Of a stretch of DNA of 64,000 nt, positions 7,419 through 55,300 are shown piece after piece (the first letter of the stretch is position 1; each line of letters opens with the position of its first letter). Where the stretch lies: positions 632,126 through 696,125 of the forward strand of contig CAZKAF010000001.1 in the NCBI GenBank assembly GCA_964550955.1. Direction: 5' to 3'. The DNA comes from an uncultured Candidatus Saccharibacteria bacterium (GTDB lineage: Bacteria; Patescibacteriota; Minisyncoccia; Phycocordibacterales; CAIZLB01). The notes beneath the pieces are model-generated. The model was given only the letters and a program-made list of their open reading frames with translations. It had not been told where the DNA came from and searched no databases. Position numbers and translations under genes: made by a program.

Positions 7419-7661
7419 TTAGAACTTTTTGATTTGGAGGGGTTTCCCTCCGGGAACCTGATGCGTGTAAGCCATCGGGTTCACGTAGTGGTACCAGGCC
7501 AGGAAGGCCAGATACAACATTCCGATCAGTCCCGCGACAAAAGTTACGGGGTGAATTCGGAACTCGGCAGCGATCCACATGCACATCGCTGATACCAGAA
7601 AACCTGTGAGGGCATCCTGGCGACGAAGGCATTTCGCCTTCTCTTGAACGTTTTTAGCCAT
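7419..7661 (-). CDS. small membrane protein (2 TM), hypothetical
   Basis: 80-aa ORF with two clear hydrophobic helices. The overlapping 120-aa ORF 7270-7632 reads as Arg/Pro-rich nonsense. Confidence 0.3.
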   Translation of the reverse strand: MAKNVQEKAKCLRRQDALTGFLVSAMCMWIAAEFRIHPVTFVAGLIGMLYLAFLAWYHYVNPMAYTHQVPGGKPLQIKKF

Positions 7662-7905
7662 AATTTTTTCATGGACCCCGTCAACTGACGAGGGTTTTGT
7701 TTATTTGACTGACTCTGACCGCCGCAACGAGCTTTAACGGGCCCGTTCCGGTTAACAAATGGTCCACTTGGACCATCAAACCTGGCATTCAGCCTAGGAT
7801 GTATTAATTATCTCATGTACTGTATTTATGTCAATAGCGTACCCATAAGAATGGCTATATACAAGGGTATTTAATGCAAATAAGTACCGAATAAGCCTCA
7901 GACAA

Positions 7906-7933
7906 TTGACTTTTACCCCTCTCTATATATAAT
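7906..7933 (+). promoter_or_regulatory. near-consensus sigma70-type promoter (TTGACT-16 nt-TATAAT) upstream of nusA
   Basis: TTGACT at 7906-7911 and TATAAT at 7928-7933 with a 16-nt spacer. Confidence 0.4.
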
Positions 7934-7950
7934 GTACGCATCAGAAACAG

Positions 7951-7978
7951 CGCGCCCAAAAGGCGGGCTCGTTTTTTT
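7951..7978 (+). terminator. intrinsic terminator-like hairpin plus T7 tract in the nusA leader
   Basis: cgcgccc-aaaaggc-gggctcg stem (7 bp, one mismatch) followed by TTTTTTT. Lies about 20 nt downstream of the promoter and 120 nt upstream of the nusA ATG, with no plus-strand CDS upstream. Confidence 0.45.
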
Positions 7979-40233: not shown

Positions 40234-41229
40234 ATGTCAAAAAATATGAATAGACCTGATATCGATCAATTGATGGAAGAAAAAATCGAATCGCTGCCTG
40301 GAACAGTGAGAGAGATTATATTTTCTGATGAAATTGGCGACAAGGTCGATTCTATCGGCAAGAATTACGATTTGACCGAAGACCAGCATGATTCGCTCAT
40401 TGAAGAAATCGGCTACGTCCTCTTCCGGGTCTCGTCGTTGGCGTCATTCAAGAGAAACCTGCAAGACAACGTGGGGCTGGTTCCAAGCAAGGCGCTGGCT
40501 ATAAGCACGGAACTATATGGTTCGATTTTCCAGCCGGTCAAGAAATTCCTCAAGGACGTCGACGAGCCTGAACAAGAAACGGTGTCCATTCCGGTAAAGC
40601 AGGCGGGCAGCGTTGCGCCGAGCAGCCAGCCGACGAGCCAGCAAGAAGCATACGTCGATACGGGGTCCCTGAGCCATCATGACATATTGAGCGAAATCGA
40701 GAATCCATCTTCTTCAGTATTTAAAAGCGAGTCAAGAAACGGCGCTCCGGCCGCGCAAGCTTCGGAATCAGACGCGTCATTGCTTCCGGAAGAATCGCTC
40801 GTGGAAATAGAAAGCGAGAGCGGAAAGGGGGCAGCGCAGGCGCTCGCATCTGTCATGCCGACTTCAACGGCGAACTCGACTCCGGCCGAGGCGCCGCGAA
40901 ACATGATGAGCACGGCCGCAACCATCGCGCAGCAAAGGATTAACCTGTCTGACAGCCAGATGTACAGCCGCATATCTCAAAACTCCATTCATCACGATAT
41001 CGTGCCGAACCTGAACGGATTCAAGCCGATTATCGTCGGCAACCAGGAACCCATAACCGGAGTTCATCTCAACACGCCTGTCACGGACCCCCTCGCGAAA
41101 GCTTCGGATACTGCCGACAAGCTCAATGGAGCGCTTTCCGGACCGGTCACGAACACGCCGACAGAGGTCTATGTCTCGCAGAAACCCCAAGCATTGAAAA
41201 TGGATCCGTACAGAGAGCCGATCGAATAA
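40234..41229 (+). CDS. hypothetical protein with N-terminal helical domain paralogous to 41300-41638 and S/A/P-rich tail
   Basis: Residues ~25-105 align with the downstream 112-aa protein (Y-L-x-x-DQ-x-SL ... V-x-F ... L-x-x-x-A-x-x-I ... P-x-x-x-F). The remainder is low complexity. Confidence 0.4.
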   Translation: MSKNMNRPDIDQLMEEKIESLPGTVREIIFSDEIGDKVDSIGKNYDLTEDQHDSLIEEIGYVLFRVSSLASFKRNLQDNVGLVPSKALAISTELYGSIFQPVKKFLKDVDEPEQETVSIPVKQAGSVAPSSQPTSQQEAYVDTGSLSHHDILSEIENPSSSVFKSESRNGAPAAQASESDASLLPEESLVEIESESGKGAAQALASVMPTSTANSTPAEAPRNMMSTAATIAQQRINLSDSQMYSRISQNSIHHDIVPNLNGFKPIIVGNQEPITGVHLNTPVTDPLAKASDTADKLNGALSGPVTNTPTEVYVSQKPQALKMDPYREPIE

Positions 41230-41299
41230 CAAAAAGGGTTACGCAGACTGTCTGAAGGATACCGATAGTTGAAGTTAAAAATTTGCTATACTATATCGC

Positions 41300-41638
41300 A
41301 TGACAAATTCCCTTGAACAGATGAGCGAGAAGTTCCAGCAATTGCCGGATGACGCGCAGATAGCCATCAGCCAGTTCGACTACGACAAGGCGCTTCGGGA
41401 CGTTCACATGAAATACAAGCTCCACATAGACCAGGCATCTTCGCTCGAAAAGGCGGTTGCAAGCGTTGTTTTCGGAGAGATACGGCCGCAGACCCTGATT
41501 CAGATCATCCAAAGCGAGCTCAGGCTTGATGCCGAGCTGTCGAAATCCATCGCGTTCGACATCAACCAGTCCATTCTCTTGCCGATACAGGAACTCATGC
41601 GAAACATACAGCGTGAAAACATGGAAAGTGCTGTATAA
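41300..41638 (+). CDS. hypothetical small helical protein (paralogue of the N-domain of 40234-41229)
   Basis: 112 aa. A TGCTATACT -10-like element ends 7 nt before the ATG (leaderless-type arrangement). Confidence 0.4.
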   Translation: MTNSLEQMSEKFQQLPDDAQIAISQFDYDKALRDVHMKYKLHIDQASSLEKAVASVVFGEIRPQTLIQIIQSELRLDAELSKSIAFDINQSILLPIQELMRNIQRENMESAV

Positions 41639-41641
41639 TAA

Positions 41642-42115
41642 ATGCAAATGAAGTATCAAGTACCGCAATTCATCGAGGTCGAGGACAAGATTTTCGGCCC
41701 GTTCACGTTCAGGCAGTTCGTCTACATGGTCGGATCGCTTGGCATTTGCTTCATCGCGTACAGGACGCTCCCTTTCATCCTTGCGCTGCTCATCATGATT
41801 CCGGCCGGAGGGATGGGAGCCGCCCTGGCTTTCTACAGGCCGAACAAGAGGCCGTTCATCGAAACGGTCGAGGCCGCGTTCAATTTCATGCTGACAAGCA
41901 AGCTGTATATTTGGAAAAAGGAAGAGAAGAAAGCGGAGCCGAAGTCCGCCGAAGACATCATCAAGGCCGCGAAATCTTCCATCGTCGTGCCCCGGCTATC
42001 CGAAAGCAAGCTGAAGGACCTGTCATGGAGCCTCGACATCAACGAGACGGTTTACTCGAGGGAAACCGGAAAGCTCGAGGGCAGAAGGGAAGCGCAATCA
42101 AAAAGCCCTTTTTAG
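41642..42115 (+). CDS. PrgI-family (VirB3-like) small membrane protein
   Basis: N-terminus QVPQFIEVEDKIFGPFTFRQFVYMVGSLGICFIAYRTLPFILALLIMIPAGGMGAALAF is two TM helices with the F-x-x-RQ-F pattern seen in PrgI-type proteins. Located immediately upstream of VirB4-like ORFs. Confidence 0.5.
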   Translation: MQMKYQVPQFIEVEDKIFGPFTFRQFVYMVGSLGICFIAYRTLPFILALLIMIPAGGMGAALAFYRPNKRPFIETVEAAFNFMLTSKLYIWKKEEKKAEPKSAEDIIKAAKSSIVVPRLSESKLKDLSWSLDINETVYSRETGKLEGRREAQSKSPF

Positions 42116-42206
42116 CGCGCTTCCGGTCGTTCCGGCAATCGTGTCGCGTTTTGAAATACTTGGTATATAATGACAGCAAGCAAAGCAGGATAGAACATCT
42201 AAATCT

Positions 42207-42842
42207 ATGGCAATCGACGCAAAACCAACACAAGCATTCGTTCCTATAAAAGAAATCCGAGACGGCGTCATGGTGCTCAAGGATGGAGGCATGCGAACGA
42301 TACTCCTTGCCTCATCATTGAACTTCGCGCTCAAGTCAGCCGACGAGCAGCAGTCGATCATCTTCCAATTTCAAAACTTCCTGAACTCCCTCAACTTCAG
42401 CGTCCAGATTTACACGCAGTCGCGAAGGCTTGATATACGGCCATACTTGGCCCTCATGGAAGAAAAGCTCAAGGATCAGACGGGCGACCTCATGAAAATG
42501 CAGACTCGGGAATACATCGAGTTCATCAGGAGCTTCACGGAGTCGAGCAGCATCATGACGAAGAGCTTTTTCATCGTCATTCCGTACAGCCCGCCCATCG
42601 CGAGCGGAGTAAACGCCGTAAAAAAAGGTTTTTTTGGAAACAAGTCCAATGTCAGCGATGAAAAATCCACGTTCGAGGAGAACAGGAGCCAGCTCCAGCA
42701 AAGAACCGAGGTGGTAGAGCAGGGCCTGGTGCGCTGCGGAATCAGAATCGCGGAACTGGGCACCGAAGAGCTCATCGAGCTCTTCTACAAGACATTCAAT
42801 CCGGGCGACGTGGAGAAGCCGATCAATCTTGGTAACAAATAA
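42207..42842 (+). CDS. VirB4/TrsE-family N-terminal domain encoded as a separate ORF
   Basis: VPIKEIRDGVMVLKDGGMRTILLASSLNFALKSADEQQSIIFQFQNFLNSLNFSVQIYTQSRRLD matches the characteristic N-terminal region of Gram-positive-type VirB4 ATPases (IPIKDIkdGii.tKDG.y.kIlEv.piNF.LkSeeEQ..ii..f..fL), recalled from family knowledge. The ORF ends 29 nt before, and in a different frame from, the ATPase ORF. Confidence 0.55.
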   Translation: MAIDAKPTQAFVPIKEIRDGVMVLKDGGMRTILLASSLNFALKSADEQQSIIFQFQNFLNSLNFSVQIYTQSRRLDIRPYLALMEEKLKDQTGDLMKMQTREYIEFIRSFTESSSIMTKSFFIVIPYSPPIASGVNAVKKGFFGNKSNVSDEKSTFEENRSQLQQRTEVVEQGLVRCGIRIAELGTEELIELFYKTFNPGDVEKPINLGNK

Positions 42843-42871
42843 TTTTTGGTGCTATACTTTGAGGGAATATT

Positions 42872-44911
42872 ATGGGACTTTTAGATTTTTTAGCGCCAAA
42901 AAAACAGCACGACAACCCGATTGCCTCCGTCCTTCCTCAGGAAATTTACCAATCAGGCGTCCTTGAACTGCAGGACATCATCGCCCCATCGGCCCTTAAG
43001 GTAAGCCCCAGAGCGCTGAACCTCGGAGACAAGCTCGTCCGAACTTTTTTCGTAATTTCATATCCTCGGTTCCTCTCCGAAAGCTGGTTCGCGCCGATCA
43101 TCAACCTCGACAAGATTTTCGACATCTCGATCTTCATTCACCCGATCGATACGGCTTCAGTGCTCCGAACATTCCAGAAGAAGGTGGCGGAAGTACAGAG
43201 CCAGATTCACCTTCGAGAAGAGAAGGGACTTGTTCGAGATCCTGTTCTCGATACCGCATACCAGGACCTCGAAACTCTTCGAGACAGCCTCCAGCAGGCG
43301 CAGGAAAAGATTTTCGATGTAGGACTGTATATCTCCATTTATGGCGAAAATGAAAATGACTTGGACAAGATAGAATCTGAAATCAAGTCTATTCTCGAAT
43401 CAAGCCTCGTATACCTGAAACCCGCCCTTTTCCAGCAGGAACAAGGGTACAAGAGCGTTTTGCCTATCGCGGACGATCAGCTTAAAATCCACTCGAAGCT
43501 CAACTCCTCGCCGCTTTCCAGCATTTTCCCCTTTATCTCATTCGACCTTACCTCGGACAAGGGCATCCTGTACGGCATCAACCGGCACAACTCAAGCCTT
43601 ATTCTTTTTGACAGATTCTCGCTTGAAAACTACAACTCGATCACGTTCGCCAAGTCAGGTTCCGGAAAGTCATACATGACGAAGCTTGAGATTCTCAGGT
43701 CAATGATGTTCGATACGGACGTCATCATTCTCGACCCGGAGCGAGAATACGAATACCTGGCCGAAGCTACGGGAGGCAGGTTTTTCAATATTTCCCTCAC
43801 GTCCGAGCACCATATCAACCCGTTCGATCTTCCGGTGCCGAGAGAGGATGAGTCAGGCGCCGACGTCCTTCGGTCAAACATCGTGAGCCTCGTGGGACTT
43901 TTCCGAATCATGCTCGGAGGCCTTACGCCGGAAGAAGATGCCATCGTGGACCGAGCCATCACCGAAACATACGCCCTCAAGGACATCACGCCGGAGTCAA
44001 ACTTTGCCGCCGTGGAGCCGCCGCTCATGTCGGATTTCGAGCTTGTGCTCGCAGGAATGGAAGGAGGGGAGTCTCTCGTGCAGAGGCTTACGAAGTACAC
44101 GAAGGGAACCTGGTCAGGATTCATCAACAGGCCCTCGAACGTGGACATCAACAAGAAGCTCGTGGTGTTCTCGCTTCGAGACATGGAAGACGAGCTCAAG
44201 CCGGTAGCGATGTACATCGTGATGCACTTCATCTGGAACCAAATCCGAAAGGAGCTCAAGAAGCGGCTGATGGTCATTGACGAGGCCTGGTACCTCATGA
44301 AATCCGAAGATACGGCTTCATTCTTGCTCGGCTTGGCAAAGCGAGGACGAAAATACTATCTCGGCCTGGCAACAATCACGCAAGACGTCGAGGACTTCCT
44401 CAAGTCTCCCTACGGCCTGCCCATCATCACCAACTCTTCCATCCAGATTCTTCTCAAGCAATCGCCGTCGTCAATCGATGTCGTTCAGAAAACCTTCAAC
44501 CTGACGGATGAAGAGAAGTATCTTCTTCTCGAATCAGATGTGGGGGAAGGCATATTCTTCGCCGGACTCAAGCATGTCGCCATCAAGGTTATCGCATCGT
44601 ATACGGAAGACCAGATCGTAACGTCTTCGCCGTCTCAAGTGCTCAACATGAAGAGGGCCCGGGCAGACCTCGCAAACAAAGGTCTTGTCGGATCCCAAGG
44701 CATCAATCAGGCATTGGATCAGGGCAATTCAACGAGCGCTTCAAGCGTCAATCCCATAAACACAAGCAATGCTGACGCTTCGCCGCAGCAAGGCCAGACC
44801 CCGTTCATAAATCTCATGAATTCCGCGGCGGCCAATCCGGAAGAAGCGCCGCTGGATACCGACTCCATCGTTCAGCCGGATTTCCTCAACAAAATCAACC
44901 AGCAGGGATAA
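42872..44911 (+). CDS. VirB4/TraC/TrsE-family type IV secretion ATPase (central and C-terminal domains)
   Basis: Walker A FAKSGSGKSYMTK, Walker B RLMVIDEAWYLM, and the VirB4 motif RKYYLGLATITQDVEDF. The upstream region (YPRFLSESWFAPIINL...) resembles the VirB4 middle domain. Confidence 0.8.
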   Translation: MGLLDFLAPKKQHDNPIASVLPQEIYQSGVLELQDIIAPSALKVSPRALNLGDKLVRTFFVISYPRFLSESWFAPIINLDKIFDISIFIHPIDTASVLRTFQKKVAEVQSQIHLREEKGLVRDPVLDTAYQDLETLRDSLQQAQEKIFDVGLYISIYGENENDLDKIESEIKSILESSLVYLKPALFQQEQGYKSVLPIADDQLKIHSKLNSSPLSSIFPFISFDLTSDKGILYGINRHNSSLILFDRFSLENYNSITFAKSGSGKSYMTKLEILRSMMFDTDVIILDPEREYEYLAEATGGRFFNISLTSEHHINPFDLPVPREDESGADVLRSNIVSLVGLFRIMLGGLTPEEDAIVDRAITETYALKDITPESNFAAVEPPLMSDFELVLAGMEGGESLVQRLTKYTKGTWSGFINRPSNVDINKKLVVFSLRDMEDELKPVAMYIVMHFIWNQIRKELKKRLMVIDEAWYLMKSEDTASFLLGLAKRGRKYYLGLATITQDVEDFLKSPYGLPIITNSSIQILLKQSPSSIDVVQKTFNLTDEEKYLLLESDVGEGIFFAGLKHVAIKVIASYTEDQIVTSSPSQVLNMKRARADLANKGLVGSQGINQALDQGNSTSASSVNPINTSNADASPQQGQTPFINLMNSAAANPEEAPLDTDSIVQPDFLNKINQQG

Positions 44912-45019
44912 CGGGACGGGACAAAAAAAAGAGATTTCAATAAACTTTCCGCTTAAGGGCGGCTGGCTTAGACAAGCTCTTATGTAGAAAAAGCAGAAGC
45001 AGGTGTATAATACTGGCAT

Positions 45020-45517
45020 ATGGACGAAGAAGTACAAGAAGATGACAGCCTTGAAAGCAGAAAAATGCGCATGCAGGCGTACTACAAGTCTGGACAAAGG
45101 GTCAGCAGAAGGGAGTTTTTAAGAAACGGCGGCTTGGGCGAGACAAGAAAGCAGCTTGGACTGGACAAGGCGGGCGAGAAAAAGAAGGGTGATTTTTCAA
45201 GAACCGACTTCTTTTTCATGATGGGCATTGCCGGCTTTTATGATTTGCTGTCAGCCTTGCTGAATCTCATACCCTTCATCGGCGGCGTTTTTTCATCGGT
45301 TTTGGTGACGCCCGTCGCGCTGCTCAATCTCTATATCATGTATTCAAAAAGAGGAATCTCATTCAAGTCCACGAAATCAGTGATGAAATTCGGAGGGGCC
45401 AGCCTGATAGAATTCATACCCGTGCTGAATTTCTTGCCCGGATTCATGCTGAACGTCGTCTTGAACTACCCGCCTCCGATAGTTAAGAACACGCTCAATA
45501 AGGCGAAAATAAATTAG
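45020..45517 (+). CDS. small integral membrane protein (2-3 TM), possible pilin-like or VirB2-like subunit
   Basis: 165 aa with a hydrophilic N-terminus and then hydrophobic helices (FFFMMGIAGFYDLLSALLNLIPFIGGVFSSVLVTPVALLNLYIM). A TATAAT -10 element ends ~8 nt before the ATG. Confidence 0.35.
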   Translation: MDEEVQEDDSLESRKMRMQAYYKSGQRVSRREFLRNGGLGETRKQLGLDKAGEKKKGDFSRTDFFFMMGIAGFYDLLSALLNLIPFIGGVFSSVLVTPVALLNLYIMYSKRGISFKSTKSVMKFGGASLIEFIPVLNFLPGFMLNVVLNYPPPIVKNTLNKAKIN

Positions 45518-45535
45518 TTTTGATATACTGTACGC

Positions 45536-46651
45536 ATGTCACGGTTCTCATTCAAAAGAACAACTGCGCAGGCGCTGCTTCTTGGCTTGCTGGCAAGCGC
45601 AGCATACGTTTCACCGGCAAAGATAGGCAATGTCGCAAGCGCCCAAATAACCCCGAACTTTTCTGACACGGAAATGACCGCGGACAGCGCCCCGATGTCT
45701 TCAGTCATGCCCAATCAGCTCTCCATCGACGTGTATCCGGAATCGCCGATGCCGAACGACACCGTAACCATAACCGCGCGAACCTTCGGCATAGATACCA
45801 ATACGAATACGTATACCTGGATCGTGAACGGAAGGGAAGTCCTGAGAGGCGTCGGGCAGAACAGGTTCGCCTTTACCGTCGGAATCACGGGCACCGTCAC
45901 GAACGTGAAGCTCTATATTGATCCGGTCGACGGAAAGCGCATAGAGCGCGACTTCACGTACACGCCCCTCGACGTGGACATTCTTTGGCAGGCAAATACG
46001 TATACGCCTCCTTTCTATAAAGGAAAAGCCCTCTACACGCCTGAGTCCGAAGTAACTTTCACGTCGCTTCCCAACATTGTCGTGAACGGAGCGAGAATCA
46101 ATCCGTCCGATGTCGTATACAGATGGAAAGTAGGCTACAAGCTGCAAGATGAGCAGTCGGGATTCGGCAAGAACAGCTTTACATACAAGGGCACGATCAT
46201 CCTTCGAGAAGACCTGATCCAATCGGAGGTGTACAGCGCCCGCAATCCGACAGTCAAGGGCATCAACGGATATACGCTCAATCACGTGAACCCGCAGATT
46301 TTGACCTATGAAGACCATCCGCTGCTCGGAGTTCTCTTCAACAGAAATATTTCAGGCGAATACTATCTCAACCAGCAGGAGGTCAAGCTGGCCACATTTC
46401 CGCTGTTCTTCAGCGCGGAAAACAAGAACAGCGCGGTCACATACAAATGGGATTTGAACGATGGGCAAATTGACATACCTCAAAACCAAAATTCCGCCGT
46501 ATTTCGAAGGAACAACAACACGGCAGGAGCCTCATTCGTGGGCCTGACTGTCGGAAACCCTTCTCATATTCTCCAAAGGGCGCAGGCCGGCATCTCGGTG
46601 ATATACGAAGATGCGAGAACGGCGACGGCAATTCCGTTTGGCTCAAACTAA
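45536..46651 (+). CDS. secreted beta-rich surface protein, hypothetical
   Basis: Signal peptide MSRFSFKRTTAQALLLGLLASAAYVSPAKIG, then a T/V/N/Y-rich sequence suggestive of Ig-like beta domains. A TTGATATACTGTAC motif ends 2 nt before the ATG. Confidence 0.4.
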   Translation: MSRFSFKRTTAQALLLGLLASAAYVSPAKIGNVASAQITPNFSDTEMTADSAPMSSVMPNQLSIDVYPESPMPNDTVTITARTFGIDTNTNTYTWIVNGREVLRGVGQNRFAFTVGITGTVTNVKLYIDPVDGKRIERDFTYTPLDVDILWQANTYTPPFYKGKALYTPESEVTFTSLPNIVVNGARINPSDVVYRWKVGYKLQDEQSGFGKNSFTYKGTIILREDLIQSEVYSARNPTVKGINGYTLNHVNPQILTYEDHPLLGVLFNRNISGEYYLNQQEVKLATFPLFFSAENKNSAVTYKWDLNDGQIDIPQNQNSAVFRRNNNTAGASFVGLTVGNPSHILQRAQAGISVIYEDARTATAIPFGSN

Positions 46652-46672
46652 TTACAAGGTTACAATTAGCCC

Positions 46673-48169
46673 ATGCATAAATTTGCCTGCTCCATACTGC
46701 TCGGATTAATTTTCTGCTTGGCGCTTGGAACTCACATAGCTTCCGCTCAGACTGCCGAAGAGTTCGCGACCATAAGCGCCGGCATCAGGCTCAACGACAG
46801 CAGCAAGAAAACGAATACCATGCGGCAAATAGAGCAAGGCTTGCTTGAAATCAGCAATCTCAGAGGGGCCTTATACGAAAAGGGGGTGCAGGCCATCGAA
46901 GTGGCAAAATATGAAGAATCCCTTTTGAACAGCTTAAGGACAGTGGCTCAGGCAACGCATAGGCAAGAAAACATGAGCGTCATTTGGGATATATTTTCTC
47001 AGAACCAAATAAACAGCAATTTCGTGCAGTCGCTTGCGAACTTTCAAAACACGGTCGCCAACATATACATTCAAAACGGCATAGAAGACCAGGGGCAAAA
47101 TTATAAAGACGGAGCGGCGGCGCAAGCGGCACTAGCAAGCCAAGTGCAGCAAGGCAATTATCCGCAACCAGTACGAGATAGCGCCGTGAATCTCGAACCC
47201 TCCGGCACCGTCGGGTCGTCGAAGCCGGCAGCCACCACCTGCACCTGGAAGGCGGGCTCCGGGCCGGACGCCGGGAAGTACTGCCTCCTGGCGCCGCTCG
47301 GGGACCTCCTCGGGGGCGAGAGCGGCAGGATAGACATCGTCAACGGGGGCATGGCGGCGTACCTCGAGGGCATGTTCAGGGCGGGAATCGCCATCGCGAC
47401 GGGGCTGACCCTCATCATGATCGTGATCGGGGGGCTTCAGTACGTGTCCACCGACGCGTGGGGAGGCAAGAGCGAGGGAAAGGAGAAGATTACCCAGGCG
47501 CTCCTCGGGCTGCTCCTGGCCCTCGGGACCGTGCTCATCGTCCAGGAGCTCAACCCGACGCTCCTGCGGAGGGACCTGGACCTGAACGAGAAGATAACGC
47601 TGCAGAGGATCAGCGGGCCGAATGTCGAGAATCTAGGCGGTGATTTGCAGTACGTCCCCGATAGCGGGGTCTTGCAGAACTCGGTGAACCTTATAGATCC
47701 GGCGCGAATAGGCATAACAGGAAACCCGAACCTGAACGTGGCCGGCCGCATCGTCGAATCCGCAAGAAAGAACATCGGATTCGACACATGCCTTGTCGTG
47801 ACCGAAAACGGCAGAAAAGGCTGCGGATACGCGTTTGGAAAAATAATGAAAGACGCGGGGGTGGATATCGGCCTGTCAGACACCGCGGTTCTCGGAACTC
47901 GCGCAATTTACAATGCGCTGGCAAGCAGCAATAAGTTCTACCTGGTACCAGGAGGGCTGTTTACGTCCGTAGCAGGAGACATCGTCATATCCCCGACGGG
48001 AGAAAAGTCAGGTCATGTCGGAATAGTCGAGACAATGGCCGGATCATCCATCATCTCGAACAGCAGCGCAGCCGGCGAAGTCTCTCGAAACTGGACAGCG
48101 ACAAGATGGATCAGCTATTACGAGGGAACGCAGGGATTGAAAACGTATGTCTTCAGGGCAAAGATATAA
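46673..48169 (+). CDS. VirB1-like cell-wall hydrolase: signal peptide + two-helix hydrophobic module + C-terminal CHAP/NlpC-P60-like cysteine peptidase domain
   Basis: N-terminal signal peptide. Central module ...AGIAIATGLTLIMIVIGGLQYV...ITQALLGLLLALGTVLIVQEL. C-terminus contains Cys in DTCLVVTENGRKGCGYAFG and His in SGHVGIVE, consistent with a CHAP-type Cys-His hydrolase. Confidence 0.55.
   Translation: MHKFACSILLGLIFCLALGTHIASAQTAEEFATISAGIRLNDSSKKTNTMRQIEQGLLEISNLRGALYEKGVQAIEVAKYEESLLNSLRTVAQATHRQENMSVIWDIFSQNQINSNFVQSLANFQNTVANIYIQNGIEDQGQNYKDGAAAQAALASQVQQGNYPQPVRDSAVNLEPSGTVGSSKPAATTCTWKAGSGPDAGKYCLLAPLGDLLGGESGRIDIVNGGMAAYLEGMFRAGIAIATGLTLIMIVIGGLQYVSTDAWGGKSEGKEKITQALLGLLLALGTVLIVQELNPTLLRRDLDLNEKITLQRISGPNVENLGGDLQYVPDSGVLQNSVNLIDPARIGITGNPNLNVAGRIVESARKNIGFDTCLVVTENGRKGCGYAFGKIMKDAGVDIGLSDTAVLGTRAIYNALASSNKFYLVPGGLFTSVAGDIVISPTGEKSGHVGIVETMAGSSIISNSSAAGEVSRNWTATRWISYYEGTQGLKTYVFRAKI
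47228..47628. repeat. copy 1 of a 401-bp perfect direct repeat (GC-rich) shared with 48676-49076
   Basis: Sequence from gcagccaccacctgcacctgg... to ...gatcagcgggccgaatgtcga is identical in both genes, and the spurious antisense ORFs in the two copies translate identically. Strongly GC3-rich, unlike the flanks. Confidence 0.85.
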
Positions 48170-48246
48170 GGACACCGGTCCAATCTGTTAATCAGACTGT
48201 TAACAGACAGCAAGTGTACAGCTTTGTTTTTGATATACTATGAAAT

Positions 48247-49602
48247 GTGAATAAAGTTTTCTTAAAAATTGCCAAGCCCCTCCTTTGTCTGATTCTTTGC
48301 CTAACATTCATATTCCCGTTCTTCGCGAGCGCGGCCATCGGCGGCAATTTTAATGATCTGACGACAGGAACATACACGGCGACCATAGAAAACTATCCTG
48401 CGCCCGGCCAAAAACAGAGTTTTGACCTTGTCTTGATAGCTGATTATAACGGCCGGATATATGTCGACGAGGAGAAGTCAAAAATACCGGTAAAAGACAC
48501 GTATGACGAGCTGTTGCCCAGAGAATTAACCTATCTAGGACCGAACGGATCGAGCATGACCATCGACCTCATGTCGAGGCAGAAAGTAGGAGACGGGGTA
48601 ACAGGAGAAATCAAAAGCGATGGGCAAGGAAACACATTATCTCCAGCAATCGTGGCGACAAAGTCTGAAACCAAAGCAGCCACCACCTGCACCTGGAAGG
48701 CGGGCTCCGGGCCGGACGCCGGGAAGTACTGCCTCCTGGCGCCGCTCGGGGACCTCCTCGGGGGCGAGAGCGGCAGGATAGACATCGTCAACGGGGGCAT
48801 GGCGGCGTACCTCGAGGGCATGTTCAGGGCGGGAATCGCCATCGCGACGGGGCTGACCCTCATCATGATCGTGATCGGGGGGCTTCAGTACGTGTCCACC
48901 GACGCGTGGGGAGGCAAGAGCGAGGGAAAGGAGAAGATTACCCAGGCGCTCCTCGGGCTGCTCCTGGCCCTCGGGACCGTGCTCATCGTCCAGGAGCTCA
49001 ACCCGACGCTCCTGCGGAGGGACCTGGACCTGAACGAGAAGATAACGCTGCAGAGGATCAGCGGGCCGAATGTCGATTCTCTCGGAATCGACATAAGCCA
49101 ATACCCGACAGTAGATAACATCGTAAACAACGCTACGAATTATAACTATCAAGTGACAGGTACGACGAAGTTCGCCTTGAGCGACTTCTCGAACATGGAA
49201 TGGAGAGCATACGCCCTCAATCAGATAAACAACACGAGGCTGCCTTCCATGAAACCCATTGACGCTGACAAATTTTTTCCAGGCGGAGTGGTAACAGCCG
49301 AGGGATGGCTTAAAATAGTGGCCGGGATAGTGAAACTTGAGTCCAGCTTCAACCCGAGACTTGTCTTTCCTGAACCGCCTCCATTGAACAAGAACTCGGT
49401 TGGACTGATGCAATTATCTTATGATGATGCCGAGGTTAGGGCGCGAGGATATTCGGAAGAAGACTTGAAGAATCCATTAAAAAATCTTGAGGCCGGCATA
49501 AAGATACTCGAGAGGCAGCTCATAAGGCACGGCTGCATATCCTGCAAGTCGGCAGAAGGGTCATGGAGAGGCGGAGCCCAATACTGGTCTACCTTAAGAT
49601 AA
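48247..49602 (+). CDS. VirB1-like cell-wall hydrolase: same two-helix module + C-terminal lytic transglycosylase (SLT) domain
   Basis: GTG start directly after TTGATATACT. C-terminus has SLT motifs: catalytic E-S (IVKLESSFNPRLV), GLMQLSY and LEAGIKIL. Central module is identical to that of 46673-48169. Confidence 0.6.
   Translation: MNKVFLKIAKPLLCLILCLTFIFPFFASAAIGGNFNDLTTGTYTATIENYPAPGQKQSFDLVLIADYNGRIYVDEEKSKIPVKDTYDELLPRELTYLGPNGSSMTIDLMSRQKVGDGVTGEIKSDGQGNTLSPAIVATKSETKAATTCTWKAGSGPDAGKYCLLAPLGDLLGGESGRIDIVNGGMAAYLEGMFRAGIAIATGLTLIMIVIGGLQYVSTDAWGGKSEGKEKITQALLGLLLALGTVLIVQELNPTLLRRDLDLNEKITLQRISGPNVDSLGIDISQYPTVDNIVNNATNYNYQVTGTTKFALSDFSNMEWRAYALNQINNTRLPSMKPIDADKFFPGGVVTAEGWLKIVAGIVKLESSFNPRLVFPEPPPLNKNSVGLMQLSYDDAEVRARGYSEEDLKNPLKNLEAGIKILERQLIRHGCISCKSAEGSWRGGAQYWSTLR
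48676..49076. repeat. copy 2 of the 401-bp perfect direct repeat
   Basis: See copy 1; offset 1448 bp. Confidence 0.85.
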
Positions 49603-49708
49603 GGGGGTTTTCAATTTTTAAGTTTTAAGACGGCGCGGAAGCCGCGCATAAAAATCACGATTAGCCCTGTCTACAAGTGAAAAATATTTGATATACTGTA
49701 CCTAACGC

Positions 49709-51106
49709 ATGAACAGGAAAACCGCTTTCATTATTATCGTGGTGGCGCTCAGTCTCATCATCGGCGGCCTCATCGGCTTTTATTTTTATACCATAAGAAA
49801 TAATCCGACGGCCACTTTCTTCGGAAGGGACATCTCCGGAAGAAACTTCGCCAACTACGATCCTTCAAGCCCGAATACCGGAACCTCGACCGCGACGCAG
49901 GACACTCCGGTCATAGTCGGAACAAGCACGTCTCCGCAGGACATGCCAAGGCTCAGGAAAATAAGCGACAATCCGGTAGCCGGTTTCAGCTTTGTAAATA
50001 AGGACATTATCGCAACGAGCACGAGAAACATCGAGCCGCCGGACCTTTCCCAGACCGGAGGAAGACCTGTGGCAACGCCGGCGCCTCGGGTTATCGGAAA
50101 TGTTGAAGTCATCAGATACATCGAGAGAGCCACTGGACACATATTTGAAACGAGCACGTCGACGCCCATAACGACTCGTATCTCAAATACGACTATCCCC
50201 AAGATATACGAGGCCTTGTTCGCAGAAAGAGGAGATTCGCTTATCTTGAGAGACTTGATAGGCTCAACGGACATCATAAGAACGCAGTATGCATCATTGG
50301 TACGTTCCACTACGACAAACTCGGAGGAACTCGAAACTGTAACAAAAGACCTGACCGTCAATTTGCTCCAAGCAGTCTTGTCTCCGACTAAAAACCAGCT
50401 GTTCTCCATTCAAAAGGAAGGCGTTACGGGTTTCCTGTCGACGCCTGACGGAGGGGGAATACAGACCGTATTGGACATACCTTTCAAGGAATGGCTTGTT
50501 CAGTGGCCGGAAAGAAGGGCTATCGTACTGACAACAAAGCCGTCAGGTTTCTTCCCTGGCTACGCATATGTTCTAAACCCTGAAAACAGGTCATTTACGA
50601 GAATCCTGGGAAATATAAACGGTCTTACCACAAGCATGTCTCCTCAGGACACGAATAAGCTCATATACAGCAGAAGCGACGCGGGAACATTCAGCCTATG
50701 GGCTTTTGACAGAAGAACAAGCGAATCAACAAACCTGCAGGTCAGGACGCTGCCTGAGAAGTGCGTGTGGGCCAACACGGAAGCTGACACCATTTACTGC
50801 GCGATTCCGGACGACATCGCATTCAATACGTATCCCGATGTCTGGTATCAAGGAAGGATAACGTTCTCTGACAGCATCTGGAAAATCAACATATCAACAA
50901 GAGAAGCACGGCTCATATCAAGGCCTCAATCAGAGGTTTCGGAAATAATCGACGTGGAGAAAATAGAAATCAATCCAAAGGACGATTACCTTCTCCTCAC
51001 GAACAAGATCAACTACGATTTATGGGGACTAAGACTGGTCGAGCCAGCCAGACCGCCCGCAAACCCGTTGGATTCAATAGGAACATCGACCCCGAGCGAG
51101 ACTTAG
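49709..51106 (+). CDS. membrane-anchored Thr/Ser-rich extracytoplasmic protein, hypothetical (last gene of island)
   Basis: N-terminal TM FIIIVVALSLIIGGLIGFYFY, then a 440-aa T/S-rich domain with a beta-propeller-like feel. A TTGATATACTGTAC motif lies 12 nt upstream. Confidence 0.4.
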   Translation: MNRKTAFIIIVVALSLIIGGLIGFYFYTIRNNPTATFFGRDISGRNFANYDPSSPNTGTSTATQDTPVIVGTSTSPQDMPRLRKISDNPVAGFSFVNKDIIATSTRNIEPPDLSQTGGRPVATPAPRVIGNVEVIRYIERATGHIFETSTSTPITTRISNTTIPKIYEALFAERGDSLILRDLIGSTDIIRTQYASLVRSTTTNSEELETVTKDLTVNLLQAVLSPTKNQLFSIQKEGVTGFLSTPDGGGIQTVLDIPFKEWLVQWPERRAIVLTTKPSGFFPGYAYVLNPENRSFTRILGNINGLTTSMSPQDTNKLIYSRSDAGTFSLWAFDRRTSESTNLQVRTLPEKCVWANTEADTIYCAIPDDIAFNTYPDVWYQGRITFSDSIWKINISTREARLISRPQSEVSEIIDVEKIEINPKDDYLLLTNKINYDLWGLRLVEPARPPANPLDSIGTSTPSET

Positions 51107-51192
51107 ACAAGAGATGTCACCAAAGAAAAAGACCCTTCCAAGAGAGAAGGGTCTTTTTCTTGCGCATCATATAAAATCCCGAGAAACAATCC

Positions 51193-51927
51193 TTATAAGA
51201 CCTTTTTAAGCGTCTTCCTGAAGTAGAGTTCCTGACCGATAGTAAACAAGCTTCCAGTAATCCAGTACAAAGCCACGGCGCCAGACACTGTTAAGCAGAT
51301 CACGAACATTATGACCGGCATCACATATCTCATCTGCATGTTCATGTTTCGAGCCAGCTCTTCGGAAAAATCCCTTTCCCCCATCTTTTTCTTTTCGCTG
51401 CCTTCTTTCGGCTTATAAGCAGGGACAGAAAGCCTTATCTGCACGAACTGTGCGGCGCCGGCGAGAACGCCGAGCACGACGCTTACCTTGGTAATGTCAA
51501 TGAGGCCGAGAAAGAGGGTGTTTATCGAGCTTGGAATCTTGACGAATGAATAAAGCAATTCGGCATTTATTTCCGGAAAACCCCCTCTTGAGAAGATAAA
51601 GAACAGTCCGAGAATGATGGGAATCTGAATGAGCAGCAGGAAAAAGCTGGCAAAAGGGTTCAAGTTGTTCTTTTTATAGAAATCGAGAGTCTTTCGGGCA
51701 AATTCCTCTTTGTTTGCGCCGTATTTCTTCTTAAGCTCGGCCAACTCCGGCTCCAAAGCCTTCATGATGATTTGAGTTTTGGTGGCCTGCTTGGATAAGG
51801 GGAAGAGGATGAGCTTCACGATACAAGTGAGCGCGATCGTGGCCAGACCAAGGTCTCCGCCAGGAATATAATCAAGAAGAAGAACCAGACCGTTATATAA
51901 TGGGTTGTAGATGAGTGTTGCAAACAT
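51193..51927 (-). CDS. yidC: membrane protein insertase YidC/Oxa1 (short form)
   Basis: 244 aa and 5 TM. The N-terminal MFATLIYNPLYNGLVLL... and the conserved helix pattern match short-form YidC. Sits in the rnpA-yidC operon. Confidence 0.85.
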   Translation of the reverse strand: MFATLIYNPLYNGLVLLLDYIPGGDLGLATIALTCIVKLILFPLSKQATKTQIIMKALEPELAELKKKYGANKEEFARKTLDFYKKNNLNPFASFFLLLIQIPIILGLFFIFSRGGFPEINAELLYSFVKIPSSINTLFLGLIDITKVSVVLGVLAGAAQFVQIRLSVPAYKPKEGSEKKKMGERDFSEELARNMNMQMRYVMPVIMFVICLTVSGAVALYWITGSLFTIGQELYFRKTLKKVL

Positions 51928-51932
51928 GTTTT

Positions 51933-52271
51933 TTATAGCTTAAGCATACCACTTTTTGAAAAAAGATACCTCATTTCCGAGACCAAATCAGATTGCCTTA
52001 TTTTCAAAATGCCGTCAAAGCACGTGAACGTGACAAGCTGATTCTTATCCTTGAAAAGCGCCGCATCTTGTTTTTTAAGGACAGTCAGCGCGGATTTAAT
52101 CTTTCTTTTAGCCTTATTTCTCTGAACCGCCGTTTTGAAGATTTTTTTTGAGGCAATTACGGCAATATTTCGAGAAACCGGCTCGCCGCCCATAAAAACC
52201 TTCAACAAAAAAGAGCTTGATTTGTAAGCTCTTCCTTGCGTAATTACTTTTGTAATATCTCTATTGTTCAT
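51933..52271 (-). CDS. rnpA: ribonuclease P protein component
   Basis: 112 aa, basic, RNR-like motif region (AVQRNKAKRKIKSA). Position between rpmH and yidC. Confidence 0.8.
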   Translation of the reverse strand: MNNRDITKVITQGRAYKSSSFLLKVFMGGEPVSRNIAVIASKKIFKTAVQRNKAKRKIKSALTVLKKQDAALFKDKNQLVTFTCFDGILKIRQSDLVSEMRYLFSKSGMLKL

Positions 52272-52307
52272 AGGTAAGATAATACGAGACCGCCGAGTTC
52301 CTTATGC

Positions 52308-52466
52308 CTATTTTGAAAGCCGCTTTGAAGCTTTCACCGTAAGCTGAGCTCGTCCTTTTCGTCGTCGGGCCTGTAGAGTTCTTCTACCCCCGTGAGTTTT
52401 GGACCGAACCAAAAAACCGTGAGTTTTTGCTCGTTTTCTCTTTTTAGGTTGGTATGTTACTGACAT
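52308..52466 (-). CDS. rpmH: 50S ribosomal protein L34
   Basis: Hand-translated reverse strand: [52 protein letters not shown]. Below the ORF-track size cutoff. Canonical rpmH-rnpA order. Confidence 0.85.
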
Positions 52467-52540
52467 GCCGGCAATAGTACATTATATATTCATATAATTC
52501 AAGTTCTTTTATATGCCCCCCGTTATATAATGTTCGCATT

Positions 52541-53875
52541 ATGGATAGCAAAACTTTATGGGACACAGTCTTAATTCAAGTTGAATTAGAAGTTACTAAA
52601 GCTACCTACACCGCATGGTTCAAGGATACGTTCATCTCAAAGATAGATTCCGGTACGGTTTACCTCGCAGTTCCCAACACATTCGTTCGGGAATGGCTCC
52701 AAACCAAGTTTCATAAGGTTATTCTTCAAAATCTGAGAAACTCACTCGAAGGGGTGCGAGCCGTGGAGTATATAATCGCTCAAACTAACAAGAAAAAGGA
52801 GGATTATGTCACTGAAATACCCACCCAGACAAAAGAACTTCCTTTAAACACGCTCCTTATTAACCCGGAAGACAACCTGAATCCTCGCTATACATTCGAA
52901 ACCTTTGTTGTAGGCCCTTTTAACGAGCTCGCATATGCCGCTTCTCAAGCTATCCTGAAGAAGCCCGTTGCTTACAACCCCTTATTCTTTTATGGAAATA
53001 CAGGCCTTGGCAAAACGCACCTCATGCAGGCGATAGGAAATCATATAAAGACGCATCACAAAGACAAGCGTATTCACTATGTAGCATCAGAACGGTTCAC
53101 CATAGACTACATCAACTCGGTACAGGCTAACAAAGTCCACAACTTCAAGGAAAAGTACCGAAAATACGACGTTCTCATCATGGACGACATCCAATTCCTG
53201 TCGCAGAAAGAGAAGACTCAGGAAGAACTCTTTCACTTGTTCAACTACATGTATGACGGAAACAAGCAGATCATCTTTTCATCTGATCAGCACCCGAACT
53301 ACCTTCAAAACCTGGAAGACCGCCTAAAATCAAGGTTTATGGCCGGCATGATCATAGATATCTCGCCCTTGGACACCGAATCAAAAATCGCCATCCTTCA
53401 AACTAAGGCCAAGATGAACAATTTCAACCTGGAACCTGAAATTGCTTACTATATAGCATCCGTCGTTCATGGAAGCATCCGAGAGCTTGAAGGGACCTTA
53501 AACGCCGTTATTTGCCAAGCCCAGCTCAAAGGCAAGGACGTAACGCTTGCTGACGTGAAGCAGATAACAAAAGATTCCACCAAGCCCCAGAAGAGCATTT
53601 CCGTTAAGGACGTGGTCAAGGCCGTTTCAGCATTCTATAACATAGAGGAGGAGAGCATTTACAATAAGACAAGGAGACAGGAGGTTGTTAAGCCGAGACA
53701 GCTGACCATGTATATCCTGAGAGAGGATTACAACATATCCTTCCCAGCTATCGGACAAAAGCTAGGAAATCGCGATCACACGACCGTCATGCATTCATGC
53801 GAAAAGATTAGAAACGAGCTGAAAAACAACCCCGACCTGACATCCGAACTCAACCAAATTCGCTCCCTTATTTAA
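52541..53875 (+). CDS. dnaA: chromosomal replication initiator DnaA
   Basis: 444 aa. Walker A GNTGLGKTHL, the AAA+ box, and C-terminal domain IV (helix-turn-helix). Confidence 0.95.
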   Translation: MDSKTLWDTVLIQVELEVTKATYTAWFKDTFISKIDSGTVYLAVPNTFVREWLQTKFHKVILQNLRNSLEGVRAVEYIIAQTNKKKEDYVTEIPTQTKELPLNTLLINPEDNLNPRYTFETFVVGPFNELAYAASQAILKKPVAYNPLFFYGNTGLGKTHLMQAIGNHIKTHHKDKRIHYVASERFTIDYINSVQANKVHNFKEKYRKYDVLIMDDIQFLSQKEKTQEELFHLFNYMYDGNKQIIFSSDQHPNYLQNLEDRLKSRFMAGMIIDISPLDTESKIAILQTKAKMNNFNLEPEIAYYIASVVHGSIRELEGTLNAVICQAQLKGKDVTLADVKQITKDSTKPQKSISVKDVVKAVSAFYNIEEESIYNKTRRQEVVKPRQLTMYILREDYNISFPAIGQKLGNRDHTTVMHSCEKIRNELKNNPDLTSELNQIRSLI

Positions 53876-54193
53876 GACTCCATATAGGACTTTTTACATG
53901 TCTTATACACAGTGTGAATAAACCTGTGGATAACTGGTGAATACCGTTTAAAAAATGGTTGATAACCTGTTCAAAACCATGTGCTTTATCACTAATAAAG
54001 TGTGGAAATTTAAGCCCTTTTCCCCAACCAGGAAGTTATCCACTTTTACTTTCCATAGAAACTCCCCAGCATCCACAAACCAGCCTTCCAGCCCCAGCCT
54101 TTCCCCTCGTCAGATTTGACACTTATCCACTTATCCACCGTGCTAATAGTAGTAATAACTTTTTTATTAAAAATAAGATAAGATTAAGACACC
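53876..54193. promoter_or_regulatory. oriC candidate: DnaA-box cluster plus AT-rich unwinding element between dnaA and dnaN
   Basis: Perfect box TGTGGATAA (53925-53933, reverse complement of TTATCCACA). Near-boxes TTATCCACT (54035-54043, 54122-54130), TTATCCACC (54131-54139), TGTGGAAAT (54001-54009), CATCCACAA. AT-rich tract 54150-54190. Confidence 0.6.
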
Positions 54194-55300
54194 ATGAAGA
54201 TAGAGAGTTTAAAAGATAAGCTTCTTGCAGGCATCCAGAAAGCTGAGAAGGTCACATCGAAGAACACTTCGCTCCCTGTCCTTAAGTGCGTCTTATTGGA
54301 AGCGTCCAAGAGCAGTCTCATAGTCAGGTCGACAAACCTGGATGTTGGCCTTGAGATAACCATCCCAGTTAAGTTGGAGATGGAAGGAGTTCTTGCTGTT
54401 CCAGGCGGAATCGTTTCAAGCGTCATTTCCCAGCTGTCGTCAGACAAGTCCGTTACGCTCGAGTCGAAAGAGGGTAATCTTTGCATATCGTCCTCGAAAA
54501 ACAGCACCTTGATCAAGACGTTTCCTCCAGATGATTACCCTTCGATACCGAAAGTCGACGAAGATACCTCCAAATCCTTTAAAATTGACTCTGCAGCGCT
54601 TGTTTCCGGCTTGAAGGCTGTTTGGTATAGCTCTGCCAATTCGAACATCAAGCCGGAGCTTTCAAGCGTTCGGGTGTATCCTCAGAACGGTAAGCTTGTA
54701 TTTGTGGCGACGGACGGTTTCCGTCTGGCGGAAAAGAAGATTTCCATGAAAGAACTGCCCGATTTCACCCATGTCCTTATTCCGGTTCGAAATGCTACCG
54801 AGATAATAAGAATATTCGACGGCTTGGACGAGGAGCTGACTGTTCTTATTGATGATAATCAAATTGCGGTCAAATCAAGCAATATTTACCTGGTTTCAAG
54901 GACGATAGAGGGCAATTTCCCTGATTATAACGCCATTATCCCCAAGGAATTCAGCACTGAAGCTGTTATTTTGAAGCAGGACCTCGTTAATAGCCTGAAA
55001 GTCAGCACTATTTTTAGCGACGTTTATTATCATATAAAATTCCAGATAAATGCGGCTGGCGGCAAGTTTGAGATGATAACCAAGAATTCCGAAGTTGGCG
55101 AAAGCGTTACTGAGCTGCCAGCCGTCCTTTCAGGGCAAGACATGGAGGTTAATTTCAACTACAAATACATAAATGACTGCATATCCGTTCTTTCGACGGA
55201 CAGCATGACGTTCTCTTTTGGCGGCGGAAACAAGCCTCTTGTCATACGGCCCGTCAGCGACGAGTCTTTCCTGTACCTCGTGATGCCGATGAATAGATAG
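54194..55300 (+). CDS. dnaN: DNA polymerase III beta sliding clamp
   Basis: 368 aa with a three-domain beta-clamp pattern. Immediately downstream of dnaA/oriC. Confidence 0.9.
   Translation: MKIESLKDKLLAGIQKAEKVTSKNTSLPVLKCVLLEASKSSLIVRSTNLDVGLEITIPVKLEMEGVLAVPGGIVSSVISQLSSDKSVTLESKEGNLCISSSKNSTLIKTFPPDDYPSIPKVDEDTSKSFKIDSAALVSGLKAVWYSSANSNIKPELSSVRVYPQNGKLVFVATDGFRLAEKKISMKELPDFTHVLIPVRNATEIIRIFDGLDEELTVLIDDNQIAVKSSNIYLVSRTIEGNFPDYNAIIPKEFSTEAVILKQDLVNSLKVSTIFSDVYYHIKFQINAAGGKFEMITKNSEVGESVTELPAVLSGQDMEVNFNYKYINDCISVLSTDSMTFSFGGGNKPLVIRPVSDESFLYLVMPMNR

Follow-up and report, generated by a model that had tools for sequence, protein, structure and literature searches.

We have found that two adjacent genes in a type IV secretion system (T4SS) cluster share an identical 401-bp segment that is embedded in otherwise unrelated coding sequence. 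The genes, called A and B here (P0004 and P0003 on record), lie in a 64-kb stretch of contig CAZKAF010000001.1 (the window), which makes up about 10% of a 696-kb genome. The segment appears to encode a VirB2-like pilin module placed in the middle of two putative peptidoglycan hydrolases. Comparison with related genomes indicates that such modules are under domain-limited concerted evolution by recurrent gene conversion between the two loci. In two genomes, including this one, the converted tract has an extreme G+C content at third codon positions (GC3), which may reflect a GC bias of the conversion itself.

An exact repeat inside two open reading frames

The repeat is direct. Positions 47228-47628 and 48676-49076 of the window are 100% identical over 401 bp as assembled, and at either end the very next base differs. 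Both copies begin at codon phase 0 of their open reading frames (ORFs; 46673-48169 and 48247-49602). Each of the four junctions is in frame, with unique flanking sequence. Outside the repeat, successive 30-nt blocks of the two genes are 13-43% identical, which is the random level, and a BLASTN comparison of the window with itself returned the 401-bp pair as the sole long repeat found. An earlier note on this DNA had claimed both that the copies are base-for-base identical and that the sequence around them is unrelated; direct comparison and BLASTN bear out the first claim and the flanking blocks the second. The observation of the repeat is real and robust. Gene B is also bracketed by a 21-nt imperfect inverted repeat with 86% complementarity (48261-48281 and 49602-49622), which runs from just inside the start of the gene to just past its stop and is probably due to chance.

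Domain architecture of the two proteins

Each protein has three hydrophobic segments, which in gene A cover residues 1-26, 233-259 and 272-298. AlphaFold2 (AF2) models place helices at residues 222-259 and 265-293 of gene A, and at residues 43-74 and 80-108 when the module is modeled alone, giving a hairpin of two long helices that is separated from the hydrolase by a low-confidence linker of about 50 residues. Within the loop of the hairpin, K81 and G84 are near-invariant across the family. Among 108 module homologues, 79 match PF18895 at E ≤ 1e-3 (best 3e-15) and two match TrbC/VirB2, and a module profile retrieves mostly PF18895 proteins carrying the NCBI name 'pilin'. The closest stand-alone homologue, the 154-aa PF18895 protein P0001, is 53% identical to the module and occupies the same syntenic slot of another genome, between genes of the 371-aa and 465-aa types. 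An exhaustive search returned 7,488 relatives of the module at E ≤ 0.001, many of them 300-600 aa long. PF18895 pilins are expected to stand alone and to measure about 100-230 aa; here the module lies inside proteins of 498 and 451 aa. Based upon the family matches and the predicted hairpin, the module appears to be a VirB2-like pilin domain of the PF18895 family, in agreement with the suggestion of the earlier note that it is a VirB2/TrbC-type two-helix module.

The C-terminal domain of gene A is a putative CHAP/NlpC-P60-type cysteine peptidase, and its CHAP assignment is supported at the level of the family. Its homologues match CHAP in nine of ten cases and NlpC_P60 in four of ten, the family profile matches the CHAP endolysin Lys2972 (8tw1) at E 5e-7, and Cys384 (47822-47824), His448 (48014-48016) and Asn463 (48059-48061) are invariant. 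Gene B ends in a predicted SLT lytic transglycosylase that also matches the PDB entry 6ta9, an 'SLT domain-containing protein', at E 3.8e-14. These Pfam, PDB profile and homologue matches support the earlier view of the segment as the membrane module of a CHAP and an SLT hydrolase.

Concerted evolution of the module in related genomes

A search with the VirB4 protein yielded 80 syntenic loci in species-representative genomes (74-91% identity), all of them metagenome-assembled genomes from the candidate phyla radiation (CPR) of the Paceibacteria/Parcubacteria type. In these loci the pilin-domain gene invariably follows the 371-aa-type gene, and most genomes have one such gene, encoding 140-480 aa. 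Tandem gene pairs that share only the module occur in 11 genomes: that of the window and those of loci L002, L006, L012, L014, L089, L092, L093, L094, L095 and L098 (L-codes denote loci of relatives and P-codes proteins). In all 11, the module DNA is 90-100% identical within the genome, compared with 52-88% for the best match between genomes, and in eight it is 100% identical over 388-508 bp. Because identity thus extends to synonymous sites, purifying selection alone is ruled out as its cause, and since the flanking domains are unrelated, the tract ends where homology is lost.

The gene pair is older than the split between this genome and that of L002, since A and B of the window align with A and B of L002 over the module as well as the CHAP or SLT domain (46% and 51% identity); the neighboring genes of the two genomes are 49-54% identical. 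The VirB4 proteins of L002 and L092 are identical and their module DNA differs by 12%, whereas the copies within each genome are 94% (L002) and 100% (L092) identical. Fifteen module pairs with differing flanks are at least 95% identical among 161 family proteins, so homogenized modules are common. Sequence comparison therefore indicates that the modules are under domain-limited concerted evolution by recurrent gene conversion between two loci. Gene conversion had been proposed for the window in the earlier note, and ten other genomes have now been found with the same kind of homogenization within the genome.

The first alternative to be weighed is an assembly artefact, in which the copies differ or one of them is spurious and a single consensus was threaded through both, or in which a GC-rich chimera was inserted. 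A de Bruijn graph represents exact repeats of 400-500 bp as a simple loop, where bubble-popping would remove a few true differences, and the identities within genomes are bimodal (100% or at most 94%, plus one case of 99.65%), as an artefact of the first kind might leave them. Against it stand the four in-frame junctions with unique flanks and the synteny, which predicts a pilin gene at precisely this place. The ten other two-copy assemblies, which are independent and come from NCBI, JGI and ENA, have the same architecture, some of them with resolved mismatches. For a chimera, k-mers would have to be shared at each edge in both genes, even though GC3 is 0.93 inside and 0.57 outside, and L094 displays the same GC3 step limited to the tract. 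We consider an artefact of either kind very unlikely.

It could also be supposed that the modules were duplicated or inserted independently and recently in each lineage, with no ongoing conversion of an old pair. The genes are in tandem, their domain combinations vary (the N-domain of the gene B type is joined to SLT here and to CHAP in L089), the gene order of L006 differs, and L091, L001 and L097 are single-gene loci, all of which would fit such a history. However, the window, L002 and L092 have a common gene order and orthologous C-terminal CHAP and SLT domains, as do L094 and L095 among themselves, and eleven separate, very recent and domain-precise insertions would be required. The replacement of a resident module by the neighbor's copy would be gene conversion in any case. 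Independent duplication is therefore an improbable account.

Diversity-generating retroelements (DGRs) are common in CPR genomes and also involve two near-identical repeats, a template and a variable one. The present copies are identical, however, and the 22 mismatches between the copies of L002 are of all types, mostly at third positions, and are not specific to adenine. No reverse transcriptase was found among the 31 window proteins scanned against Pfam, and the repeat encodes a conserved membrane hairpin as opposed to a variable ligand-binding tip. The likelihood that the repeats belong to a DGR is negligible.

Several observations concern exchange of the domains on either side of the module. 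The N-domain of the gene B type is combined with SLT in the window, with CHAP in L089 and P0015, and with a third enzyme type ('DYDGSPGAY...ISPAAAKALG') in P0013; the helical N-domain of the gene A type is combined with CHAP or, in L091 and L094, with SLT. Examples of such shuffling are provided by window positions 48334-48675, L089 8001-11116, P0013, P0015 and P0005. Domain composition indicates that fusion of the pilin domain to peptidoglycan hydrolases is routine in Paceibacteria and that N- and C-terminal domains are exchanged around it, for which the shared module may serve as a recombination pivot. The single N-pilin-SLT gene of L091 is what recombination between two direct repeats would be expected to produce. 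In L014 (13882-15306; also in P0024) one ORF carries two tandem pilin modules before an SLT-like domain, with 94% DNA identity in L014 and 100% identity at the protein level in P0024; the next gene of L014 holds a third copy, and the double-module protein would have four membrane helices. The first gene of the L092 pair (7107-7958) has kept its homogenized module (388 bp, 100%) and lost CHAP, and its C-terminus is a Gly/Pro-rich stretch of low complexity.

Third-position composition of the converted tract

The repeat has a GC content of 66.8% compared with 48.9% for the window, and a GC3 of 0.932 compared with 0.41-0.75 across 46 window ORFs and 0.52-0.61 in the non-repeat parts of genes A and B (0.57 overall). 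Among 11,430 other 133-codon windows drawn from the ORFs, GC3 has a mean of 0.61, a standard deviation of 0.077 and a maximum of 0.805. The sliding-window analysis thus upholds the earlier description of the segment as strikingly GC-rich with G or C at nearly all third positions; the accompanying description of the genome as AT-leaning has to be withdrawn, since at 48.9% GC and a GC3 of about 0.6 the window is compositionally balanced. No ribosomal-protein or elongation-factor genes are present in the 64 kb, so that the check proposed in the earlier note, a comparison with the GC3 of highly expressed genes, is answered here by the sliding-window maximum. Within the repeat, codon pairs differing by A/G or T/C are nearly all represented by their G- or C-ending member. 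Leucine is encoded exclusively by CTC and CTG, and arginine by AGG in seven of eight cases and never by CGC. The isoleucine codon ATA, the one A-ending codon whose A-to-G change alters the amino acid, is retained (two of 11 isoleucines here, six of 12 in the GC3-rich module of L094).

In 65 single-copy loci, 15 of which have a background GC3 of at least 0.45, the GC3 of the pilin domain minus that of its locus is +0.006 ± 0.05 (maximum +0.14). In the two-copy loci, the module exceeds the flanks of its own genes by 0.36 in the window and by 0.47 in L094, compared with -0.03 to +0.11 in the nine others. The 508-bp identical tract of L094, whose locus has a GC content of 0.44, has a GC3 of 0.858 compared with 0.30-0.44 (0.39) in its flanks, and the step coincides exactly with the ends of the tract in both genes. 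The L094 module is 47% identical to that of the window and groups with those of L089, L093 and L095 (67-71%), which are AT-rich and have module GC3 values of 0.24-0.32. The window and L094 are the GC-richest of the two-copy genomes.

The earlier note had offered a horizontally acquired cassette as one explanation, and a GC-rich donor followed by copying into the second gene would account for the sharp compositional boundary and for a GC3 far above that of the host. It would also fit gene A, where the GC3-rich run extends 10 codons past the repeat, which could mean that gene A was the first to receive a longer foreign patch. Import from such a donor is nevertheless unlikely because the identity of the module to those of L091, L092, L002, L089 and L006 (65, 60, 59, 56 and 45%) ranks as that of the neighboring genes does. 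The best match outside the genome is 61% identical among 1.84 billion representative proteins and at most 52% in metagenome contigs, and the identity to known pilins of GC-rich Paceibacteria is about 33%. In L094 the enrichment had a separate origin, and the module there lies among its own AT-rich sisters. Finally, AGG makes up 12-24% and CGC 24-33% of arginine codons in GC-rich relatives, unlike in the repeat. With divergence that follows the neighbors and no close donor in either collection, the cassette is not upheld, and we give it little credence.

Selection could in principle raise GC3 through codon optimization of a highly expressed pilin, perhaps with a third, master copy, or through mRNA stability or pausing over the hairpin. 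T4SS pilin-domain proteins are among the top-expressed genes of unknown function in Patescibacteria metatranscriptomes (PMC10936435), only a tenth of the genome lies in the window, and the raw folding energy of the tract is very low (-182 kcal/mol per 401 nt). This folding is no better than that of dinucleotide shuffles (z = -0.46), however, and the unusual codon composition that the earlier note had tied to a codon- or RNA-level constraint is real, while an RNA constraint finds no support. The N- and C-terminal portions of these ORFs are translated just as often and have GC3 values of 0.39-0.57, the 65 single-copy pilin domains lack an excess even in GC-rich genomes, and ATA, which is usually disfavored, is kept or enriched. 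Three protein searches returned no stand-alone protein containing this module, although these are lossy: the word-indexed search did not recover the two proteins of the window itself, which are in the collection, from a query with their exact 133-aa module or from one with a module profile, so that its nulls are weak evidence. Rfam and tRNA scans of the window detected just four tRNAs, distant from the locus, and a promoter and terminator scan of 41-52.6 kb gave nothing beyond chance. On balance, selection is a doubtful explanation of the excess.

Since the remainder of the same ORFs is unaffected, a recombination-linked drive toward G and C is preferred over codon selection. We attribute the GC3 excess, with moderate confidence, to GC-biased gene conversion in the two GC-richest lineages. 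Conversion alone is insufficient, because two of 11 homogenized genomes are enriched, and a lineage-specific bias must be assumed because the nine other converting pairs display steps of only -0.03 to +0.11. Such a bias would lift genomic GC modestly and the most-converted tract to near saturation. We favor it as the most economical reading, which extends the hypothesis of biased conversion in bacteria (PMC4450053). In its favor, ATA makes up 25-37% of isoleucine codons in the GC-rich Paceibacteria L008, L020 and L022 (GC3 0.62-0.73), and ATT falls to 8-14%, which suggests that the genome-wide rise in GC proceeds there mainly via synonymous transitions, as in the GC3-rich modules.

Genomic setting of the gene pair

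The host is a Paceibacteria (CPR) genome, and the locus is a chromosomal T4SS cluster. The gene pair lies 1.8 kb downstream of virB4, a position kept in 70 loci, and placement of the T4SS cluster beside dnaA has been reported for Paceibacteria (PMC12102498). Features of the locus are collected in Table 1. No stand-alone pilin gene was found elsewhere in the window by self-comparison or with the family hidden Markov model (HMM).

Table 1 Features of the T4SS locus and of genes A and B (window positions)
Feature	Position	Strand	Evidence
PrgI/VirB3-like T4SS gene	41642..42115	+	Pfam PrgI E 3.5e-10
VirB4/TraC-type T4SS ATPase, synteny anchor	42872..44911	+	Pfam P-loop_TraG E 7e-26
Two conserved T4SS-locus genes (165-aa membrane protein, 371-aa secreted protein)	45020..46651	+	Synteny; upstream of the pilin gene(s) in every relative
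Gene A, 498 aa: signal peptide, helical N-domain, pilin-like module, disordered linker, putative CHAP/NlpC-P60-type peptidase	46673..48169	+	ORF; AF2 model
Gene A predicted signal peptide, aa 1-25, ...IASA|QT	46673..46747	+	Hydrophobic segment 1-26; cleavage predicted from A-x-A rule
Gene A N-terminal helical bundle, aa 48-159	46814..47149	+	AF2 predicted local distance difference test (pLDDT) 85-92; aligns with N-domains of P0005/P0153/P0007
Ten successive G/C-ending codons directly upstream of copy 1, gene A only, outside the identical tract	47198..47227	+	Chance about 0.006 at GC3 0.6
Copy 1 of the repeat, encoding the pilin-like module in gene A (aa 186-319)	47228..47628	+	Exact repeat; GC3 0.93; family HMM E 1.5e-38
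Module transmembrane helix 1, AGIAIATGLTLIMIVIGGLQYV	47381..47446 (copy 2: 48829-48894)	+	Kyte-Doolittle peak 2.23; AF2 helix
Module short basic loop, STDAWGGKSEGKEK, predicted cytoplasmic	47447..47488 (copy 2: 48895-48936)	+	Sequence; positive-inside rule
Module transmembrane helix 2, ITQALLGLLLALGTVLIVQEL	47489..47551 (copy 2: 48937-48999)	+	AF2; hydropathy
Gene A putative C-terminal CHAP/NlpC-P60-type cysteine peptidase domain	47738..48160	+	Pfam CHAP E 5e-4, below gathering cut-off; homologue evidence
Gene B, 451 aa: signal peptide, N-domain (fold type unlike that of gene A), pilin-like module, linker, predicted SLT lytic transglycosylase	48247..49602	+	ORF
Gene B N-terminal domain, unrelated to that of gene A	48334..48675	+	47% identical to N-domains of P0013/P0015/P0026, whose C-terminal enzymes are different
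Copy 2 of the repeat, encoding an identical pilin-like module in gene B (aa 144-277)	48676..49076	+	Exact repeat; family HMM
Gene B SLT domain; putative catalytic Glu365 (49339-49341, motif LES)	49306..49521	+	Pfam SLT E 4.7e-10, above cut-off
Conserved 465-aa membrane-anchored gene	49709..51106	+	Follows the pilin gene(s) in all relatives
yidC (-), rnpA (-), dnaA (+), dnaN (+): chromosomal origin neighborhood	51193..55300	.	Pfam

The entire T4SS operon is on the plus strand (41000-55300; loci L091-L096) and reads toward yidC-rnpA/dnaA, which would be head-on to replication if the origin is at dnaA; GC skew in the window is too weak for a clear origin signal. A type IV pilus locus lies at 148-6728 on the minus strand and contains PilB/T2SSE (4944-6728) and PilC/T2SSF (3650-4864) together with three tandem ORFs of about 180 aa (1972-3657, minus strand), two of which have the N_methyl prepilin motif. 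The ORFs at 3650-6728 had been considered as EF-Tu and EF-G, which was rejected in favor of PilC and PilB. A second PilB paralogue is found at 61840-63747 on the minus strand. The two PilB genes were rejected as a second conversion pair, as their short DNA matches of 82-85% represent conserved motifs.

Proposed mechanism and points against it

Both proteins are Sec-type precursors, and it is hypothesized that, after cleavage of the signal peptide, the hairpin inserts into the membrane with its basic loop in the cytoplasm, as VirB2-type pilins do. In this predicted topology the N-domain and the hydrolase would both be outside the cell. Through the hairpin, one enzyme that cuts glycan and one that cuts peptide would be tethered to the T4SS or incorporated into a pilin assembly, and genes A and B would jointly supply the two activities of a VirB1-type wall-cutting function. 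Recurrent conversion between the genes keeps the modules identical, and AT-to-GC changes would spread to both copies while GC-to-AT changes would be erased, bringing synonymous sites in the tract to about 90% G or C. The modules may be kept identical by selection on a shared docking or polymerization interface, or their identity may follow, as a neutral consequence, from frequent conversion between tandem repeats of 400 bp. We regard the reading as a whole, namely tandem Sec-exported pilin-hydrolase genes whose modules are homogenized by conversion that is GC-biased in two lineages, as somewhat probable.

Several points weigh against this reading. The module alone scores E 0.05 against PF18895 (14.1 bits, compared with a gathering cut-off of 26.6), its profile gave no VirB2 match among PDB sequences, and a Foldseek search with the hairpin model returned just non-specific helical matches at E > 2; a fold search with the full-length gene A model likewise returned non-specific helical matches alone. 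As the assembly is of the metagenome type, in which graph simplification can inflate exact identity, the perfect identity may in part be an effect of the assembler. The conclusion of concerted evolution is independent of perfect identity, because resolved pairs at 90-99.7% display the same pattern. As for composition, GC3 enrichment is found in just two of 11 homogenized genomes. The link to GC-richer lineages has n = 2 with a Spearman correlation that is not significant, and third positions are saturated with respect to all outgroups, so that the direction of substitution is unpolarized. The ten G/C-ending codons at 47198-47227 lie beyond the present identical tract, though they may be the remnant of a once longer one. 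Finally, a third, highly expressed 'master' pilin copy may exist as donor, given that 64 of 696 kb were seen.

Comparison with known systems

The VirB2-like pilins described in Patescibacteria (PF18895; Quinonero-Coronel et al. 2025, PMC12102498; Wang et al. 2023, PMC10633639) belong to the same family, have the same position with respect to virB3/virB4 and dnaA, and likewise consist of a signal peptide and two helices. Tandem pilin genes are common in these bacteria, and neither paper mentions hydrolase fusion or homogenization of pilins (PMC12102498, PMC10633639). The published arrays consist of small stand-alone pilins with a mean identity of 25% and a maximum of 54%, whereas the domains described here are identical in DNA and lie within enzymes of 451-498 aa. 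Whole-protein identity would conceal a shared internal domain.

VirB1-type hydrolases such as PrgK of pCF10, TraG of pIP501 and CwlT of ICEBs1 likewise combine an SLT or muramidase domain with CHAP or NlpC-P60 in a T4SS locus, and are membrane-anchored with their catalytic domains outside the cell, as predicted here. In those proteins both enzymes are on one polypeptide with a plain N-terminal anchor (PMC12102498). In genes A and B, by contrast, the activities would be divided between two genes, and the anchor of each protein would be a VirB2-like hairpin at mid-chain that follows an additional N-domain.

The concerted evolution of tufA/tufB, flagellin and mtrA genes (Wang and Chen 2018, PMC6053082) has the same hallmarks: greater likeness within than between genomes, synonymous identity, and recurrence over speciation. 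Concerted paralogues are mostly components of complexes, and mtrA combines conversion with domain shuffling (PMC6053082). That survey concerned full-length genes and reports only 26 cases, whereas here one internal domain is homogenized between otherwise unrelated genes. The present cases also differ in belonging to a CPR lineage and in the extreme GC3 shift of two genomes.

In the work on GC-biased conversion in bacteria (Lassalle et al. 2015, PMC4450053), recombining sequence is likewise richer in G and C at synonymous sites, and enrichment proceeds via optimal and non-optimal codons alike, independently of expression. That work compares recombining with non-recombining genes under recombination between strains and does not mention paralogues or ectopic conversion. 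Here, the contrast lies inside single ORFs, where the edges are sharp and GC3 changes by 0.36-0.47.

Conclusions

Domain-limited homogenization of hydrolase-fused pilin modules across Paceibacteria is undescribed in the literature searched, as is a GC3 jump that is confined to a conversion tract and has arisen twice. Because non-homologous sequence borders the tract within the same ORF, explanations based on expression level are internally controlled. GC-biased conversion in bacteria has so far been argued from genome-wide correlations; this locus constitutes an internally controlled test, for which the related genomes supply positive and negative cases, and the question is thus directly testable.

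Patescibacteria need the T4SS for growth on the host cell, and whether the monoderm system forms a pilus, and what role its 'pilins' play, are debated (PMC10633639, PMC12857230). The homogenized modules contradict the published picture of uniformly divergent pilin arrays and point to a common docking or assembly role. A bolder proposal, which we hold to be unlikely, is that both proteins serve interchangeably as subunits of a single VirB2-type polymer, that is, T4SS pilus subunits with tethered wall-cutting enzymes, in which co-assembly demands identity and the GC3 step of 0.4 is a clean read-out of GC-biased conversion that arose twice. If this were true, the enzyme-bearing pilus would serve to breach the wall of the host cell or of the bacterium itself.

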